Positions 1,414 to 9,003 of a DNA stretch of 32,974 nucleotides are shown here, piece after piece; within the stretch, counting starts at the first letter, position 1, and each line of letters starts with the position of its first letter. The DNA lies in NCBI GenBank assembly GCA_964443285.1, contig CAYUCJ010000001.1, positions 1 to 32,974 on the forward strand, read 5' to 3'. The position numbers and the translations under genes are program-made. The notes beneath the pieces are model-generated. The model was not told the origin of the DNA and did not search any database. It saw only the letters and a list, made by a program, of their open reading frames with translations. The DNA is from an uncultured Desulfobacteraceae bacterium (GTDB lineage: Bacteria > Desulfobacterota > DSM-4660 > Desulfatiglandales > Desulfatiglandaceae).

Positions 1414-3132
1414 ATGGAACCCGATTTTCAAAAAGCATTGATTGCGGGAGTGGAGCGGGTTTCTGCATGGTCCGATGTGCTTGACCGAATCAATGTATTC
1501 CCGGTTGCGGATGGAGATACAGGACGCAATCTGAAAATCAGTCTCAGCCCGCTGCGACACATGAAAAAGCCTCGGGAAAAGACAATCCGTGATCTCCTGC
1601 TGTCGGCTCGCGGCAACTCAGGAAATATCGCAACTCGCTTTTTTTCGGGATTTTTGAACTCGGATTCCTGTGAAGGACTGTGTCATGCAACAAGAATCGG
1701 CAGGGATCTAGCGTGGGGGGCAGTGCACAACCCAGTTCCCGGAACGATGCTGACGGTTTTTGATGCTCTGGTTGATTTTTTGGAAAGAGAGGGTTTCGAA
1801 TATACCAATCAATGTGTCTCAGAGATTGTTAATCGGCTGGAAGAGGCCGTAAAGGCAACTCCGGAACTTCTGCCAAAGCTGAAATACGCCGGAGTAGTGG
1901 ATGCAGGGGCTTTGGGAATGTACATCTTTTTTGAAGGATTTTTTTTCGCTCTTGTAGGTCAAACCGAAAAATTTAGACTGATTCAGGTTGTATTCGAGAA
2001 CATGCTTGAAGTTTCTCCCTCCTTTCAGGAAGAGATGGAGGAAGGATACTGTGCAGACATGGTTCTCCACTTCCAGACCAACGCCGAAGAAAAAGTGGAG
2101 AAACTCTCCGAATGCGGTGGTAGTTTGGTAATCATTCCTCACCAGGAATATTTTAAGGTGCATTTACATACGGCTGACACCAGGAAAACCAGAAGCCGGA
2201 TTGAATGCCTGGGCGAGGTTATGCAATGGTCGGATGATAATATTGGAAGTCAAATCAAGTCGTTTAAACGCCAACCTCGCCGAGATGCCATTCATATAGT
2301 GACGGACGCGGCTGGCTCTATCACCCTCGATGATTCTTGTGAACTGGGATTTACTCTCCTTGACAGCTATATCAATGCAGGCGAAAAGTGCCTCCCTGAA
2401 ACACTGTTTTGTCCGTCCGAACTCTACAGGCTCATGCGAGCGGGCGTAAAAGCCTCGACTTCTCAGGCTTCAGTATTTGAAAGACATCAGTGTTATCAGA
2501 GAATCATTCATCAGTACCCCAGGGCACTGTACCTCTGCACAGGGTCTGTTTTCACCGGGAACTACCAGGTGGCTATGGACTGGAAACAAAAACATGATCC
2601 GGATGATTGTCTGACCGTTATCGACACTGCGGCCGCCTCAGGCAGACTGGGCGTCATTGTTATAGCCACTGCAAAATATTCCGCCAAAATCGATGACCCC
2701 GAGGCGGTGATCGAATTTGCCAATCGCACGATCAATGAGTGCCAGGAGTATGTCTTTCTTGATAAGCTTAAATATTTGGCCGCAGGAGGGCGGTTATCTA
2801 AATCAAGTGCATTTCTCGGAGACGCATTTCATGTTAAGCCGATTATCAGTCCGACGGCTGAGGGGGCTAAGAAGGTAGGCGTCGTAAAGAATCAAGAGGG
2901 GCAACTGGAGTTTGCCCTTCAGAGGCTTGAAGAGTCTCTCGATCACGCCTCAGCTCCTCTCATTATACTGGAGTATTCCGACAACCTTGCCTGGGTTATC
3001 GATACGCCAAAAAAAGAAATTGAAAGGGCTTACCCTTCAGCGGAGGTCCTGCTCAAGCCTTTATCTTTGTCTTCCGGGGTTCATATGGGTCCCGGGACCT
3101 GGGCGGTGGCCTTCCTGCCTGAATCGGCTTAG
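1414..3132 (+). CDS. DhaL/DAK2 (FakA N-terminal-like kinase domain) fused to a DegV (FakB-like fatty-acid-binding) domain
   Basis: 572 aa. The N-terminus has INVFPVADGDTGRNL and ARGNSGNI, the DAK2/YloV-FakA nucleotide-binding motifs. The C-terminal half has IHIVTDAAGS, KASTSQAS, GSVFTGNYQVA and VIDTAAASGRLG, which line up with the DegV blocks (IVTDS, TSQPS, LSGTYQSA, VIDSxxxSxGxG). The start lies 2 nt after the upstream stop. Confidence 0.85.
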   Translation: MEPDFQKALIAGVERVSAWSDVLDRINVFPVADGDTGRNLKISLSPLRHMKKPREKTIRDLLLSARGNSGNIATRFFSGFLNSDSCEGLCHATRIGRDLAWGAVHNPVPGTMLTVFDALVDFLEREGFEYTNQCVSEIVNRLEEAVKATPELLPKLKYAGVVDAGALGMYIFFEGFFFALVGQTEKFRLIQVVFENMLEVSPSFQEEMEEGYCADMVLHFQTNAEEKVEKLSECGGSLVIIPHQEYFKVHLHTADTRKTRSRIECLGEVMQWSDDNIGSQIKSFKRQPRRDAIHIVTDAAGSITLDDSCELGFTLLDSYINAGEKCLPETLFCPSELYRLMRAGVKASTSQASVFERHQCYQRIIHQYPRALYLCTGSVFTGNYQVAMDWKQKHDPDDCLTVIDTAAASGRLGVIVIATAKYSAKIDDPEAVIEFANRTINECQEYVFLDKLKYLAAGGRLSKSSAFLGDAFHVKPIISPTAEGAKKVGVVKNQEGQLEFALQRLEESLDHASAPLIILEYSDNLAWVIDTPKKEIERAYPSAEVLLKPLSLSSGVHMGPGTWAVAFLPESA

Positions 3133-3141
3133 GTTTCGAGA

Positions 3142-3993
3142 GTGAAGACAAAAAATTTCTTTCGGTTTCAGGGATTGGATGGGGACAACTCTGAAAGTTG
3201 TTACTTCAGCCTGAAGGAGGAAAATATCCGGCAGAATGTTGAGTTAACGGAAATTGACAGTAAGGGACGATTCGCTCTTGTGATTCCCACCTATAATCAC
3301 GGGAAACGAGTTGCAGAGGTTGTGAAGGAATCCCTGAAGTTTAACCTCCCATTGTTCGTGGTTGACGACGGTTCCACGGATCTAACCCAAGCCATGATTG
3401 CGGACCTCGAAGGGGTCTGTCCTCTGAGACACAATGAAAATCGCGGAAAAGGAGCGGCGATCCTTACAGGGTTTGCCGAAGCCTCTAAAGTTGCGGATTG
3501 GGCCATTACAATAGATGCGGATGGGCAACATAACCCTCAAGATGCCTTGAAAATGGTTCAGGCGATTCCTGAAAATGAACGACCTATCATCGTGGGGATG
3601 AGGCGAGGAATGGAGGGGAAGAGCGTCCCGTGGACCAGTCGATTTGGACGGAAGTTTTCCAATTTCTGGGTGTTGCTTTCAGGTGGACCCACCATGAAGG
3701 ATTCTCAAAGCGGATTCAGAATCTATCCTATCCCCGAAGCAATGAATCTGAACGTCCTTTCAAGACGATTTCAGTTCGAGGTTGAGATCCTGGTAAAGGC
3801 CGGATGGAAAAAAATGCGGGTCATCGAAGTGCCGGTCGAGGTGAATTATGGCCAGGGGGCTGAAAGGATCTCCCACTATAGGCCAGTTGTCGATTTCTTG
3901 AGAAACAGTAGCACGTTTGCCCGACTCATTATACAAAGGATAATCAGGCGTTTTACCCCTCTCTTCCGATCTGGAGGAACCCCCGTAATTTGA
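3142..3993 (+). CDS. Family 2 glycosyltransferase (DPM1/ArnC-like polyprenyl-phosphate or lipid glycosyltransferase)
   Basis: 283 aa, GTG start. Motifs: LVIPTYNH, VVDDGSTD, ENRGKGAA and the DxD-type ITIDADGQH. Confidence 0.85.
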   Translation: MKTKNFFRFQGLDGDNSESCYFSLKEENIRQNVELTEIDSKGRFALVIPTYNHGKRVAEVVKESLKFNLPLFVVDDGSTDLTQAMIADLEGVCPLRHNENRGKGAAILTGFAEASKVADWAITIDADGQHNPQDALKMVQAIPENERPIIVGMRRGMEGKSVPWTSRFGRKFSNFWVLLSGGPTMKDSQSGFRIYPIPEAMNLNVLSRRFQFEVEILVKAGWKKMRVIEVPVEVNYGQGAERISHYRPVVDFLRNSSTFARLIIQRIIRRFTPLFRSGGTPVI

Positions 3994-4089: not shown

Positions 4090-4977
4090 ATGAGAAAAAT
4101 TTTTCATAGAAGCGTAAGTCTGTTTTCAAAGGCAGCGGGCTCATGGATTTTTGTCGCATACGCTTGGGTCGTCTCAACAGGTTTTTTCCTCTTTTTCCCT
4201 TTAAGAGTTCGAAACAGTGTTCGCTTTTATCGGATTCTTTTTCCAGACCGTAATCGGACGTTTCATCTCTGGTGCGTTTGGCGGCAGTTTCACAATTTTG
4301 CAGATGTGTTTGTCGACCGCTTTTTGCTGCAGAAATTTTCGGATATCACATATTCGTCCGAAGGCTGGGAACACCTTGATCAAGCCCTTCGGGAAGGGCA
4401 CGGGGGAATTCTGCTCATGTCCCATATGGGGAACTGGGAGGTCGCTGCACATCTTTTAAAAAGCAAAGACCACAACCTGAAGTTGCTTCTCTACATGGGG
4501 GCCAAACATAAAGAGCAACTCGAGCGAATTCAAAAGGAGAGTCTTTCCCAAAGCGGCATAAGAATTATTGCCGTGGATCATCGAGGCGGATCTCCCTTGG
4601 ATCTTGTCGAGGGAATGAGGTTCATCAACTCGGGCGGGCTGGTTTCCTTAACCGGCGACCTGCTTTGGAAAGAGGATCAGCGGAGCGCATCGGTGACTTT
4701 CTTGGGGCAGGAAGTCTGCCTTCCAGCGACACCACACTTGCTGGCGCTTTTGTCCGGTGCTCCTTTATTTGTCTTTTTTGCCTTTCCAGCGGGAAATAGG
4801 CACTATCACTTTACCTTGTCCGAACCCATATACATCCAGGCCTCTTCCCGAGGCGAGAGAACGGAGGCCATCCGACGTTCTGCTCAAAGTTATGCAAATA
4901 TACTGGAAGAAGCCCTTCGAAAGAACCCTCTGCAATGGTATCACTTCGAGCCGTTCTTCGGTTCGAAATCAAAATGA
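4090..4977 (+). CDS. LpxL/HtrB-family (lipid A biosynthesis-type) lysolipid acyltransferase
   Basis: 295 aa with an N-terminal TM helix. GGILLMSHMGNWEVAAH matches the HX4(D/E) catalytic block of lauroyl/myristoyl acyltransferases. Overall length and layout fit this family. Confidence 0.75.
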   Translation: MRKIFHRSVSLFSKAAGSWIFVAYAWVVSTGFFLFFPLRVRNSVRFYRILFPDRNRTFHLWCVWRQFHNFADVFVDRFLLQKFSDITYSSEGWEHLDQALREGHGGILLMSHMGNWEVAAHLLKSKDHNLKLLLYMGAKHKEQLERIQKESLSQSGIRIIAVDHRGGSPLDLVEGMRFINSGGLVSLTGDLLWKEDQRSASVTFLGQEVCLPATPHLLALLSGAPLFVFFAFPAGNRHYHFTLSEPIYIQASSRGERTEAIRRSAQSYANILEEALRKNPLQWYHFEPFFGSKSK

Positions 4978-6629: not shown

Positions 6630-7427
6630 TTGATCGGCAACACCGAGCCAAGCGAAATGAAGGCACTCTTAAGATCTCTTTATGACGTTGCGGTGACCCT
6701 ATTTCTCTGGTTTTATTACAGCCTCGGCTTCATTCTCTTCTTCGCCTCCTTCTATGTGGCCGCCTATCTTTTTTCTAAGAGTCGTGAGAGATCATTTCAG
6801 AGATTGAATCACCGATTTTACAAGGGATTCTTTTTTCTGCTCCGTCTTTTGGTCCCATGGGACAGATGGCGCATAGACGATGACGTCCTAAAAATCAGAT
6901 CTTCCGTTATCGTCTGCAACCACGTGTCGTATCTCGATCCTATCCTCATGATAGCGTTGTTTGAAAGACATAAGACTATCGTAAAGGCACGCTTTTTCAA
7001 GATGCCCATTTTTCGCCAGATCATCGAGCTGTCGGGGTACCTTCCCTCATCTTCGACCGGTAGGACAAGAAACATGATGGTTCAAAGGCTGGAAGAAATG
7101 GAGACTTACCTTGCCTCCGGTGGCAACCTCTTTGTTTTTCCGGAAGGAACGCGAAGCCGGGACGGTAAGGTGGGTCGGTTGAACAAGGGGGCGTTCAAGA
7201 TTGCCAGGCTTTGCAAAAAGCCGATCAAGGTCCTCTTCATTCGCAACACGGACAAATTGTTTCAGCCTGGAAAATTTTTGTTCAATACGTGCTCTTCGAA
7301 CACCGTCAGTGTGAAACTGCTTGCCAGCCTTGAACCTAACTATCAAAGCAGCGATTTTTCAATAGCTAAATTGGCGTCGGAGGTACATTCGTTGTTGGAG
7401 GCCCAAAGCGCGGAAGGAGCTGTTTGA
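6630..7427 (+). CDS. PlsC-family 1-acyl-sn-glycerol-3-phosphate (lysophospholipid) acyltransferase
   Basis: 265 aa from TTG 6630, which directly abuts the KS stop; an alternative ATG lies at 6657. Features: an N-terminal TM segment, the HX4D motif VCNHVSYLDP, and FPEGTRSRDG. Confidence 0.85.
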   Translation: MIGNTEPSEMKALLRSLYDVAVTLFLWFYYSLGFILFFASFYVAAYLFSKSRERSFQRLNHRFYKGFFFLLRLLVPWDRWRIDDDVLKIRSSVIVCNHVSYLDPILMIALFERHKTIVKARFFKMPIFRQIIELSGYLPSSSTGRTRNMMVQRLEEMETYLASGGNLFVFPEGTRSRDGKVGRLNKGAFKIARLCKKPIKVLFIRNTDKLFQPGKFLFNTCSSNTVSVKLLASLEPNYQSSDFSIAKLASEVHSLLEAQSAEGAV

Positions 7428-7512: not shown

Positions 7513-9003
7513 ATGAAGATTATCTTGATGTCCATGCCGGATGTGGCACCATTGATCATGCATGAATCCGCCTTCCATATGCCCAATTGCGGCATTGCCA
7601 GTGTCGGAGCGAATATCGACGACGGTCATGAAATCTACATTATCGACCTCATCCGAAAGCGCAAGCATCTGAGAAGGTATCTGACCAAGAAATTGCTGAA
7701 AATTTGTCCGGACCTTGTCGGGTTGTCGGCCATGGCATGGCAGTACGAAACCTGCGTAAAAATCATCAAGCTGATCAAGAGGCTGCTTCCGGAAACGAAG
7801 ATTCTCATCGGAGGGTACCATGCCACTTTGATGTATGAGGAGATTGCCGGATCCGACGAGGCACGATTGATCGACTTCATGGTGTGTGGAGAGGGAGAAG
7901 AGGCCTGCCGGCGTTTGGTCAATGCCCTGGAACGAAAAGATCTCTTCGAAAAGATCCCTTCGCTTTCCTACAAAAAGGGCGGACGCTTCGTCCACAATCC
8001 CAGAGGAGAGCTCCTGAATTTAGCCAAACTGAGACGTCCGATCAGAGACAAGCGGCGGTTGACCTGGGGATACCACATTATGAATTCCAAGGTTGAAGTC
8101 TTGGAAACCTCCCGGGGCTGCACGCGGACGTGCACTTTTTGCAGCATGAATCACATGTACGGGAGAGCGTTCAGGACGTTCCCAATCGAACGGGTAATGG
8201 CCGATTTGGATGAGATCTATCACCGCTGTAAGGCCAGATGGGTTTTTGTTGCAGACGACAACCTGGTCTTGGACCCTGCAAGGGTACTCAAAATCTGCGA
8301 CGCCATCATCGCACGGAATTTTCGGAACCTGCACCTGGTGGTCCAAGCTGACTGTGTGTCGATATCTCAAAATGAGGAAATGGTCCGCAAGATGGCCCAA
8401 GCCGGGATCAAAACCATTTTTCTGGGCATTGAAAACGTGTCTAAAAAGAACCTGGCCGAAGCCAGGAAGGGGAACATCGTAGAGGCCTCTCGAAAGGCTG
8501 TGGCGATGTGCCAAAAATACGACATCATGGTGGTCGGGGGGCTCATTTTCGGCTTTCCGGAAGACAACGAAACGGCCATCATAGAAAACTATGCCTTCTT
8601 GAAATCCATCGGAGCGGATACCGCCTACTGTCAGATTCTCACTCCCTATCCCAAAACCGTCATGCGCCAGCACTTGCTCGATGAAGGCCTGGTGACAAAC
8701 CTCCACGATTATAAATGGTACAATGGCATGTGGGCCAACGTGAAGACGAAGCACTTGGATTCCGATCGGCTACAGTATCTGTTCTGGTACCATCGCCAAA
8801 AGGTCCTGGGCTGGTGGGAGCCTTCGGAGCGTATCCGCCAGCAGGGATGGCTGTGGACCTCTATCTGGATCTATGCCTTCAGGCCCTTGTTGAAGCTTCT
8901 GATCAACCGGTCGCTCAGAAAGTACGGTTGGAGAGGACGCTATGAGAGAGAGATGAAACGCTTGTCCCGTGTGAACGCCTTTCCGGACCTGAAGGGGTTG
9001 TAA
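7513..9003 (+). CDS. Class B (cobalamin-binding domain) radical SAM enzyme, rSAM-1
   Basis: 496 aa. The N-terminal Rossmann-like B12-binding region is LVGLSAMAWQYETCVKIIKLIKRLLPETKILIGGYHAT. The CX3CX2C cluster motif is TSRGCTRTCTFCSM. A good SD (GAGGGAGA) lies upstream. Confidence 0.9.
   Translation: MKIILMSMPDVAPLIMHESAFHMPNCGIASVGANIDDGHEIYIIDLIRKRKHLRRYLTKKLLKICPDLVGLSAMAWQYETCVKIIKLIKRLLPETKILIGGYHATLMYEEIAGSDEARLIDFMVCGEGEEACRRLVNALERKDLFEKIPSLSYKKGGRFVHNPRGELLNLAKLRRPIRDKRRLTWGYHIMNSKVEVLETSRGCTRTCTFCSMNHMYGRAFRTFPIERVMADLDEIYHRCKARWVFVADDNLVLDPARVLKICDAIIARNFRNLHLVVQADCVSISQNEEMVRKMAQAGIKTIFLGIENVSKKNLAEARKGNIVEASRKAVAMCQKYDIMVVGGLIFGFPEDNETAIIENYAFLKSIGADTAYCQILTPYPKTVMRQHLLDEGLVTNLHDYKWYNGMWANVKTKHLDSDRLQYLFWYHRQKVLGWWEPSERIRQQGWLWTSIWIYAFRPLLKLLINRSLRKYGWRGRYEREMKRLSRVNAFPDLKGL

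Follow-up and report, generated by a model that had tools for sequence, protein, structure and literature searches.

We analyzed a window of 32,974 nucleotides from the genome of an uncultured Desulfobacteraceae bacterium (GenBank assembly GCA_964443285.1, contig CAYUCJ010000001.1, positions 1 to 32,974 of the forward strand). At positions 1414 to 3132 on the plus strand, the window carries an open frame with an ATG start encoding P0001, a protein of 572 amino acids (aa) that joins a Dak2 domain, a FakA middle domain, and a DegV domain and that we describe as a putative single-chain fatty acid kinase. Studies of fatty acid kinase have so far dealt only with a two-protein system of Gram-positive bacteria, consisting of FakA and FakB. 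Below, we characterize the fused protein, its relatives, and the lipid gene cluster in which it is found.

Domain composition of P0001

Searches against Pfam placed three domains on P0001, each above its curated cut-off and all encoded on the plus strand. The first is a Dak2 (DhaL/FakA_N-like) ATP-Mg domain at aa 30 to 176 (64.6 bits; positions 1501 to 1941). It is followed by a FakA middle (FakA_L/M) domain, which matched FakA-like_M (PF21645) with 34.3 bits at aa 211 to 281 (positions 2044 to 2256). The third is a DegV (FakB-like) domain, predicted to bind fatty acid, at aa 293 to 569 (positions 2290 to 3120). This domain is complete: it matched PF02645 over model positions 2 to 279 of 280 with 127.4 bits, against a cut-off of 27, and the NCBIfam model TIGR00762 with 132.6 bits, against a cut-off of 99.7. 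A sequence-only reading of the window, made by a model without database searches, had proposed that a kinase domain is joined here to a bona fide DegV domain, and the Pfam boundaries bear this out. Motifs of both families, which that reading had pointed to, lie in the corresponding parts of the chain, with DGDTGRN (aa 33 to 39) and RGNSG (aa 66 to 70) in the N-terminal part and TSQAS (aa 349 to 353) and FTGNYQ (aa 380 to 385) in the C-terminal part.

The C-terminal half had been singled out beforehand as the part to be checked against the FakA C-domain. It scored as DegV over its full length, and PF13684 (FakA-like_C) had no match in P0001 at an E value of ≤0.01, which together rule out that this half is an ordinary FakA C-domain. 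The contrast that had been drawn with canonical FakA therefore holds insofar as P0001 has a full DegV domain, but it was overstated, because the C-domain of canonical FakA is itself a reduced DegV-like fold. Dak1, the substrate domain of DhaK, had no Pfam match in P0001 either; the substrate domain is DegV.

P0001 scored far below the equivalog cut-offs for both FakA and FakB. The NCBIfam model for YloV (TIGR03599) gave 176.4 bits against a cut-off of 396.1, and that for FakA_VfrB (NF038248) gave 121.9 bits against 975, both aligning by their N-terminal ~300 positions only. The FakB1 equivalog gave 36.4 bits against a cut-off of 350. When aligned to proteins of solved structure, aa 5 to 280 of P0001 correspond to FakA (residues 9 to 319 of 7W7H, with 8VIP and 7RM7 for the N-domain), and aa 293 to 569 correspond to DegV/FakB proteins. 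As a FakA, then, P0001 has the N-domain ligands and the middle-domain triad and lacks the C-domain and the whole-protein score; as a DegV protein, it has the full-length domain and the carboxylate network and is not the stand-alone shuttle of ~280 aa.

The pairing of an EDD-fold substrate domain with a DhaL/Dak2 nucleotide domain is shared with Citrobacter DAK, eukaryotic triokinase, and DhaK/DhaL. In single-chain DAK and triokinase, both domains lie in one chain that works as a dimer, and P0001 is likewise fused. Unlike the dihydroxyacetone kinases, P0001 has the L-type domain first, a middle domain inserted, and DegV instead of Dak1.

Catalytic residues and predicted fold

In Staphylococcus aureus FakA, ADP and two Mg2+ ions are bound by Asn32, Asp38, Asp40, Thr41, Asn82, and Asp185, while Cys240, His282, and His284 of the middle domain each account for ~100-fold of activity (PMC9136124). 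In FakB1, the carboxylate is held by Thr62, Ser95, and His270, and Arg173 is needed in catalysis (PMC8892158). Our alignments placed N27, D33, D35, T36, N68, and D163 of P0001 at the ADP/Mg positions and C213, H250, and H252 at those of the triad. The FakB1 residues Thr62, Ser95, Arg173, and His270 correspond to T349, T381, R460, and H557. We assessed conservation among 103 full-length representatives of the fused family, which were 25 to 70% identical to P0001. All of the ATP/Mg, triad, and FakB-type positions were invariant or nearly so; C213 was present in every representative, and H250 and H252 were kept in 102 of the 103. The only systematic difference was at the equivalent of Ser95, which is Thr in the clade of P0001 (see below) and Ser in most DegV domains. 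Judged by these alignments, the single P0001 chain lacks none of the residues with a known role in the two-protein enzyme.

P0001 therefore shares with the FakA/FakB systems of S. aureus and S. suis (7RM7, 8VIP, 7W7H, 5UTO, and 4X9X) a Dak2-type domain for ATP and two Mg2+ with the same ligands, a Cys-His-His middle domain, and a DegV fold with a Thr/Ser/His network and catalytic Arg. By analogy, its product is expected to be an acyl-phosphate that feeds PlsY or PlsX. It differs from those systems in being one polypeptide, not two, with a complete DegV domain in place of the PF13684 C-domain. In FakA, that C-domain (FakA_C) docks FakB, and a construct without it, FakA_NL, still phosphorylates FakB-bound acid, with a Km ~10-fold worse and nothing else changed (PMC9136124). 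Because FakA_NL is active without its C-domain, a covalent tether can replace docking. By analogy, the link of ~10 residues in P0001 would do the job of FakA_C in Firmicutes, bringing the acid-loaded DegV domain to the kinase.

An AlphaFold2 model of P0001, built on 24 family members, had a mean predicted local distance difference test (pLDDT) score of 91.4 and a predicted template modeling (pTM) score of 0.91. The sole low-pLDDT stretch within the chain was the ~10-residue tether from the middle domain to DegV. The C-terminal half of the model matched whole DegV/FakB structures with template modeling (TM) scores of 0.80 to 0.89 on the target, and the N-terminal part matched FakA_N with target scores of 0.76 to 0.79. 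Superposition of the whole chain on FakA 7W7H was poor (TM score of 0.29 to 0.31), which says only that the arrangement of domains differs or is flexible. The middle domain probably also supplies the dimer interface. We consider it quite probable that P0001 alone is an acyl-phosphate-forming kinase.

Gene neighborhood

The P0001 gene is the second of an operon, and all of the neighbors described here with coordinates lie on the plus strand. Directly upstream is a gene for a hotdog thioesterase of the 4HBT/YbgC type (positions 974 to 1411; 145 aa; Pfam 4HBT_2, 44.5 bits). Its TAA stop codon is separated from the ATG of the kinase gene by 2 nt, and we propose that the kinase gene is translationally coupled to that of the thioesterase. 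The next gene in the operon encodes a GT2 glycosyltransferase (positions 3142 to 3993; Pfam). It is followed by genes for an LpxL/HtrB-family lipid acyltransferase (positions 4090 to 4977; Pfam and NCBIfam), a ketosynthase (KS), and a PlsC-type (PF01553) acyltransferase (positions 6630 to 7427; Pfam and NCBIfam). Next come genes for three B12-binding radical S-adenosylmethionine (SAM) enzymes, including radical SAM enzyme 1 (positions 7513 to 9003; Pfam), and for two other radical SAM enzymes. The order continues with a LolA-like protein, a FabG-type reductase, pairs of KS and chain-length factor (CLF), and a fusion of dehydratase and phosphopantetheinyl transferase, and it ends with a PagL-like protein, an MMPL-type exporter with a methyltransferase tail, and a polysaccharide deacetylase.

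The cluster in the window is an aryl-polyene-like chassis with radical SAM tailoring. It shares with aryl-polyene and "ladderane-type" extended type II fatty acid synthase clusters the KS/CLF pairs, acyl carrier proteins (ACPs), FabG-type reductase, dehydratases, and 4HBT thioesterases, as well as the LolA-like and MMPL-type export genes, GT2, and the LpxL- and PlsC-type acyltransferases. It differs from them by the addition of five radical SAM genes and the kinase fusion. To our knowledge, the aryl-polyene clusters described so far have no kinase of this kind. The window encodes neither an AMP-binding ligase nor an ammonia-lyase, and neither PlsX nor PlsY.

The source genome is a metagenome-assembled genome that is 76% complete and distributed over 585 contigs. 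We found one DegV and one Dak2 domain in it, both in P0001, and no FakA_C domain. There is one PlsX and one PlsY, the latter on another contig.

Distribution of the fused architecture

The joining of kinase and DegV domains is less novel than the sequence-only reading implied. A word-indexed search with P0001 returned more than 7,800 matches. The best 120 of these were all ~572 aa long, had the same three domains, were named "DegV family protein," and came from Desulfobacterales and Thermodesulfobacteriota. An exhaustive search of 50%-identity representatives yielded 294 matches below 1e-30, which fell into two tiers, one 36 to 52% identical to P0001 and the other 25 to 32% identical and ~600 aa long. 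All 10 representatives sampled across both tiers had the same three-domain order. In species genomes, full-length matches at 34 to 60% identity included Syntrophaceae, Smithella, Desulfococcus, SAR324, and Polyangiaceae, and those at 23 to 28% included Cytophagia, Bacteroidales, Xanthomonadales, Gemmatimonadales, Spirochaetota, Acidobacteriota, Thermotogae, Vagococcus, and Anaerorhabdus. Canonical Firmicute FakA matched P0001 over aa 5 to ~300 only. Among the proteins sampled, the form seen outside the Firmicutes was the fused one. The Dak2-middle-DegV architecture is not new; it represents an annotated yet uncharacterized family with thousands of copies in many phyla. In the literature, Dak2-DegV fusions are mentioned near heliorhodopsin genes (bioRxiv 10.1101/2021.02.16.431466, citing Erni et al. 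2006), and our searches found no link between such fusions and ladderane-type clusters.

Among the metagenomic representatives, one protein of 834 aa (P0255) carries Dak2, FakA_M, FakA_C, and DegV in one chain and so amounts to a complete FakA with FakB attached. Natural fusions of both types therefore exist.

Fusions of the distant tier occur in housekeeping contexts (L007; here and below, L numbers designate loci fetched from other genomes). In L021, L022, L029, L034, and L066, plsY is the immediate same-strand neighbor of the fusion gene; it lies downstream of the fusion in L021, L022, L029, and L066. In two further loci (L088:7381-9830 and L089:7360-9794), whose fusions are 30 to 32% identical to P0001, plsY is directly upstream and its stop codon overlaps the start of the fusion by 4 nt, likely representing a plsY-kinase operon in a housekeeping context. 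Among ~45 canonical fakA loci, none had plsY in its flanks, and plsX was found within 7 kb of ~17. The housekeeping fusions resemble P0001 in domain order, in aligning with it over their full length at 24 to 32% identity, and in their conserved residues. In contrast to these fusions, which have unrelated or plsY-coupled contexts, the clade of P0001 is tied to a radical SAM lipid cluster and a thioesterase. It is also set apart from FakA/FakB, since the fusion occurs in Gram-negative-type lineages and the clade in a specialized lipid cluster, not near plsX and fab genes.

Phylogeny and context of the cluster-associated clade

In a tree of the N-terminal and middle domains, the cluster-associated proteins formed one clade of 73 tips with a support of 0.99 and no intruders. 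Its members come from Desulfobacterota, SAR324, and Polyangiaceae. The neighbor of this clade is a group of other fusions; context was sampled for two of them (L088 and L089), and both are plsY-coupled. Canonical FakA forms a separate group. Within the order, which consists of sulfate-reducer-type bacteria, the clade gene was found in 24 of 81 high-quality genomes, belonging to two of six families. This distribution is that of an accessory trait.

We surveyed genomic context by tblastn of the window proteins against the fetched loci, together with the genes called on them. All closer-tier members on contigs that were long enough lie in the same type of lipid cluster (L001, L006, L009 to L012, L014 to L017, L028, and L090). 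In 11 of 14 clade loci (the window, L001, L006, L009, L010, L012, L013, L014, L016, L017, and L090), an ortholog of the thioesterase immediately precedes the fusion, and GT2 is kept beside or close to the fusion in L001, L009, L010, L011, L012, and L016. Four clusters contain a PlsY of their own (L006, L011, L017, and L028), and PlsX was in none of the clusters examined. The PlsY of the source genome is 30 to 37% identical to all of the cluster PlsYs, a range too even to be informative, and for L017 a wrong open frame had been chosen in this comparison.

In three cluster versions (L006:6690-9604, L017:6681-9556, and L009:3998-9508), the paired thioesterase and kinase genes are closely preceded by genes for an aromatic ammonia-lyase and an AMP-binding ligase, which suggests an aryl starter in these versions. 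In L009, the ligase sits 4 kb upstream, and there is additionally an acyl-CoA dehydrogenase upstream of the pair. None of these genes occurs in the cluster of the window.

The fusion carries the sole DegV domain in four of five other clade genomes. In the fifth, which is the genome of L016, we observed a second DegV domain (234 bits) in an open frame of 626 aa (G002:C12:161629-162471). This frame may encode a second, housekeeping-type fusion beside the one in the cluster, and if so, it would suggest that the two forms are not redundant.

Fusion to a radical SAM enzyme in Desulfobacter

A search for longer relatives of P0001 uncovered 14 protein clusters from Desulfobacter (P0286 to P0299; 1,102 to 1,125 aa) in which the Dak2-middle-DegV chain continues C-terminally into a B12-binding radical SAM enzyme. 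The cultured species D. vibrioformis and D. hydrogenophilus are among the carriers. The kinase part of these proteins is 40 to 42% identical to P0001, and aa ~610 to 1125 of P0286 to P0297 are 63 to 65% identical to the full length of radical SAM enzyme 1 of the window (positions 7513 to 9003). This Rosetta-stone link points to a common target molecule for the radical SAM enzyme and the acid-binding kinase. At the D. hydrogenophilus locus (L090:10001-13342), the gene just ahead of the fusion is again that of the thioesterase, in a compact cluster with the order KS-CLF, B12 radical SAM enzyme, PEMT-like methyltransferase, radical SAM enzyme, thioesterase, fusion, ACP, and dehydratase. Genes for anchoring and export (GT2, LpxL, PlsC, and MMPL) were not found within 10 kb in this cluster.

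Proposed role and alternatives

We propose that P0001 is a self-contained fatty acid kinase that re-activates an acid released by the thioesterase, and we assign this explanation as a whole a probability of roughly 0.55. Kinase activity we infer from the residues, the fold, and the context; the identity of the acid, its passage from thioesterase to kinase, and what accepts the acyl-phosphate are likewise inferred. In this model, the thioesterase would probably release the acyl chain, finished or tailored, from an ACP specific to the cluster. The DegV domain would then capture the free long-chain acid with the carboxylate at the domain surface, the Dak2 domain would bind ATP and two Mg2+ ions, and the middle domain would contribute the Cys-His-His triad, giving an acyl-phosphate as the product. 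That product could pass to PlsY for acylation of glycerol-3-phosphate. Alternatively, it could be transferred by PlsX to a general ACP and from there reach the PlsC- and LpxL-type acyltransferases, families known to use acyl-ACP or acyl-CoA. By either route, the special chain would enter a glycerolipid anchor that is later glycosylated and exported. The net effect would be a bypass of PlsX, made up of thioesterase and kinase, for chains held on dedicated ACPs.

The conserved thioesterase-kinase pair and the PlsY genes of related clusters fit this sequence of release and re-activation. PlsY is described in the literature as the acyltransferase that uses acyl-phosphate (PMC5700162; PMC9136124). 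The functional idea put forward in the sequence-only reading thus stands in two respects, as every sequence feature of a fatty acid kinase is found in one chain and the release-then-re-activation route agrees with the thioesterase pair and with PlsY; its suggestion that the kinase replaces an acyl-AMP ligase does not stand, as discussed below.

Several observations weigh against the proposed role. Three clade loci (L011, L015, and L028) have no thioesterase directly upstream of the fusion. The cluster in the window has neither PlsY nor PlsX of its own, and with the single PlsY of the genome on another contig, the acceptor step for this cluster would be one drawn by analogy. Members of the clade score below the distant fusions, with 64 versus 105 to 145 bits for Dak2 and 127 versus 230 to 270 bits for DegV; this leaves room for a substrate or partner other than ordinary fatty acids. 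One hint from the fusion to a radical SAM enzyme is that tailoring, too, may use the DegV-bound acid as a substrate, a point that our model leaves unexplained. Finally, our literature searches found no biochemical characterization of any fused member, only passing mention. For the full path from thioesterase to PlsY or PlsX in the window cluster, we see the odds as even.

Among the alternatives, it is possible, though in our view unlikely, that the pair serves general salvage or detoxification. The thioesterase would then proofread stalled or aberrant acyl-ACPs, and the kinase would recycle any free acid into ordinary phospholipid, with no product-specific role. The distant fusions, which lie beside plsY in housekeeping contexts, are consistent with such a function, and because P0001 holds the only DegV and Dak2 domains found in the source genome, it could serve general needs as well. 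However, the clade is monophyletic and, on all sampled contigs long enough to judge, occurs only in this type of cluster. Its presence in 24 of 81 high-quality genomes of the order is as expected for an accessory function, and the second, better-scoring DegV domain in the 626-aa open frame of one clade genome is consistent with separate roles.

We regard it as doubtful that the kinase activates a starter. Under this hypothesis, a free fatty or aryl acid would be converted to acyl-phosphate and passed by PlsX to an ACP, yielding a primer for the ketosynthases and replacing an acyl-AMP ligase. The window has no AMP-binding ligase or ammonia-lyase, PlsX is present in the source genome, and the combination of Fak and then PlsX is known from Firmicutes as a route from exogenous acids to acyl-ACP and elongation (PMC11586512, PMC10146087, and PMC9136124). 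Yet an AMP-binding ligase and an aromatic ammonia-lyase coexist with the fusion in L006, L017, and L009, and the kinase is therefore not the ligase's substitute; we accordingly rejected substitution for the ligase as the main explanation, and with it the earlier suggestion that the fusion supplies a starter in place of a missing acyl-AMP ligase. In addition, no cluster examined has PlsX, four have PlsY, and the constant upstream partner of the kinase is a thioesterase, which is a chain-releasing enzyme.

A further hypothesis arises because of the Desulfobacter kinase-radical SAM fusions. The DegV domain could act as a carrier for tailoring, holding the free acid or its acyl-phosphate non-covalently while a B12 radical SAM enzyme modifies it close to the carboxyl end, with phosphorylation before or after. 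In the Desulfobacter proteins, the entire kinase fusion is continuous with a full-length ortholog of radical SAM enzyme 1. In L006 and L017, the gene immediately after the fusion encodes another B12 radical SAM enzyme, and in L014 such a gene adjoins the fusion on the opposite strand. On the other hand, the acyl chain is buried in a tunnel in solved FakB structures, which would leave it little accessible (PMC8892158). The gene fusion may also reflect mere co-expression of consecutive steps, and our literature searches turned up no radical SAM enzyme acting on a DegV-bound lipid. We know of none. On balance, we consider a carrier role improbable. The same holds for a broader version, an ACP-independent lipid branch of thioesterase, kinase, B12 radical SAM enzyme, and sometimes a private PlsY, in which the acid would be tailored on DegV and leave as acyl-phosphate. 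If true, DegV would join ACP and CoA as a third type of acyl carrier used in biosynthetic tailoring.

It is highly improbable that P0001 is not self-contained, with DegV merely replacing FakA_C to dock a separate FakB or with the protein having no kinase activity and serving as a lipid sensor or a regulator. In favor of this view, the FakB-binding FakA_C also has a DegV-like fold, and a separate DegV gene could have been missed in a genome that is 76% complete. However, the domain is a full two-subdomain DegV in which the FakB residues for carboxylate binding (Thr, Thr/Ser, and His) and for catalysis (Arg) are conserved beyond the needs of a docking module, the kinase residues are all invariant or nearly so, and no other DegV was found in the source genome or in four of five further clade genomes.

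Returning to the kinase that re-activates a released acid, the model predicts that an unusual, radical-SAM-modified acyl chain enters a membrane lipid by way of an acyl-phosphate, which, if true, would be a new use of this intermediate in specialized lipid biosynthesis. The acid bound to the purified protein should be the product of the cluster or a precursor of it, which would give a handle on the product of a cluster found in 24 of the 81 high-quality genomes sampled from the order. The single-chain form also makes a simple object for examining how the ATP site, the Cys-His-His triad, and the bound acid meet in FakA/FakB catalysis.

A consensus scan for promoters and terminators remained at background level and gave no convincing promoter upstream of the thioesterase gene, in positions 1 to 970. 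This stretch of ~970 bp is AT-rich and contains short open reading frames only, and the first 2 kb of the window have a G+C content of 43%, compared with ~50% downstream. Positions 1 to 970 probably represent the left border of the cluster together with its regulatory region.

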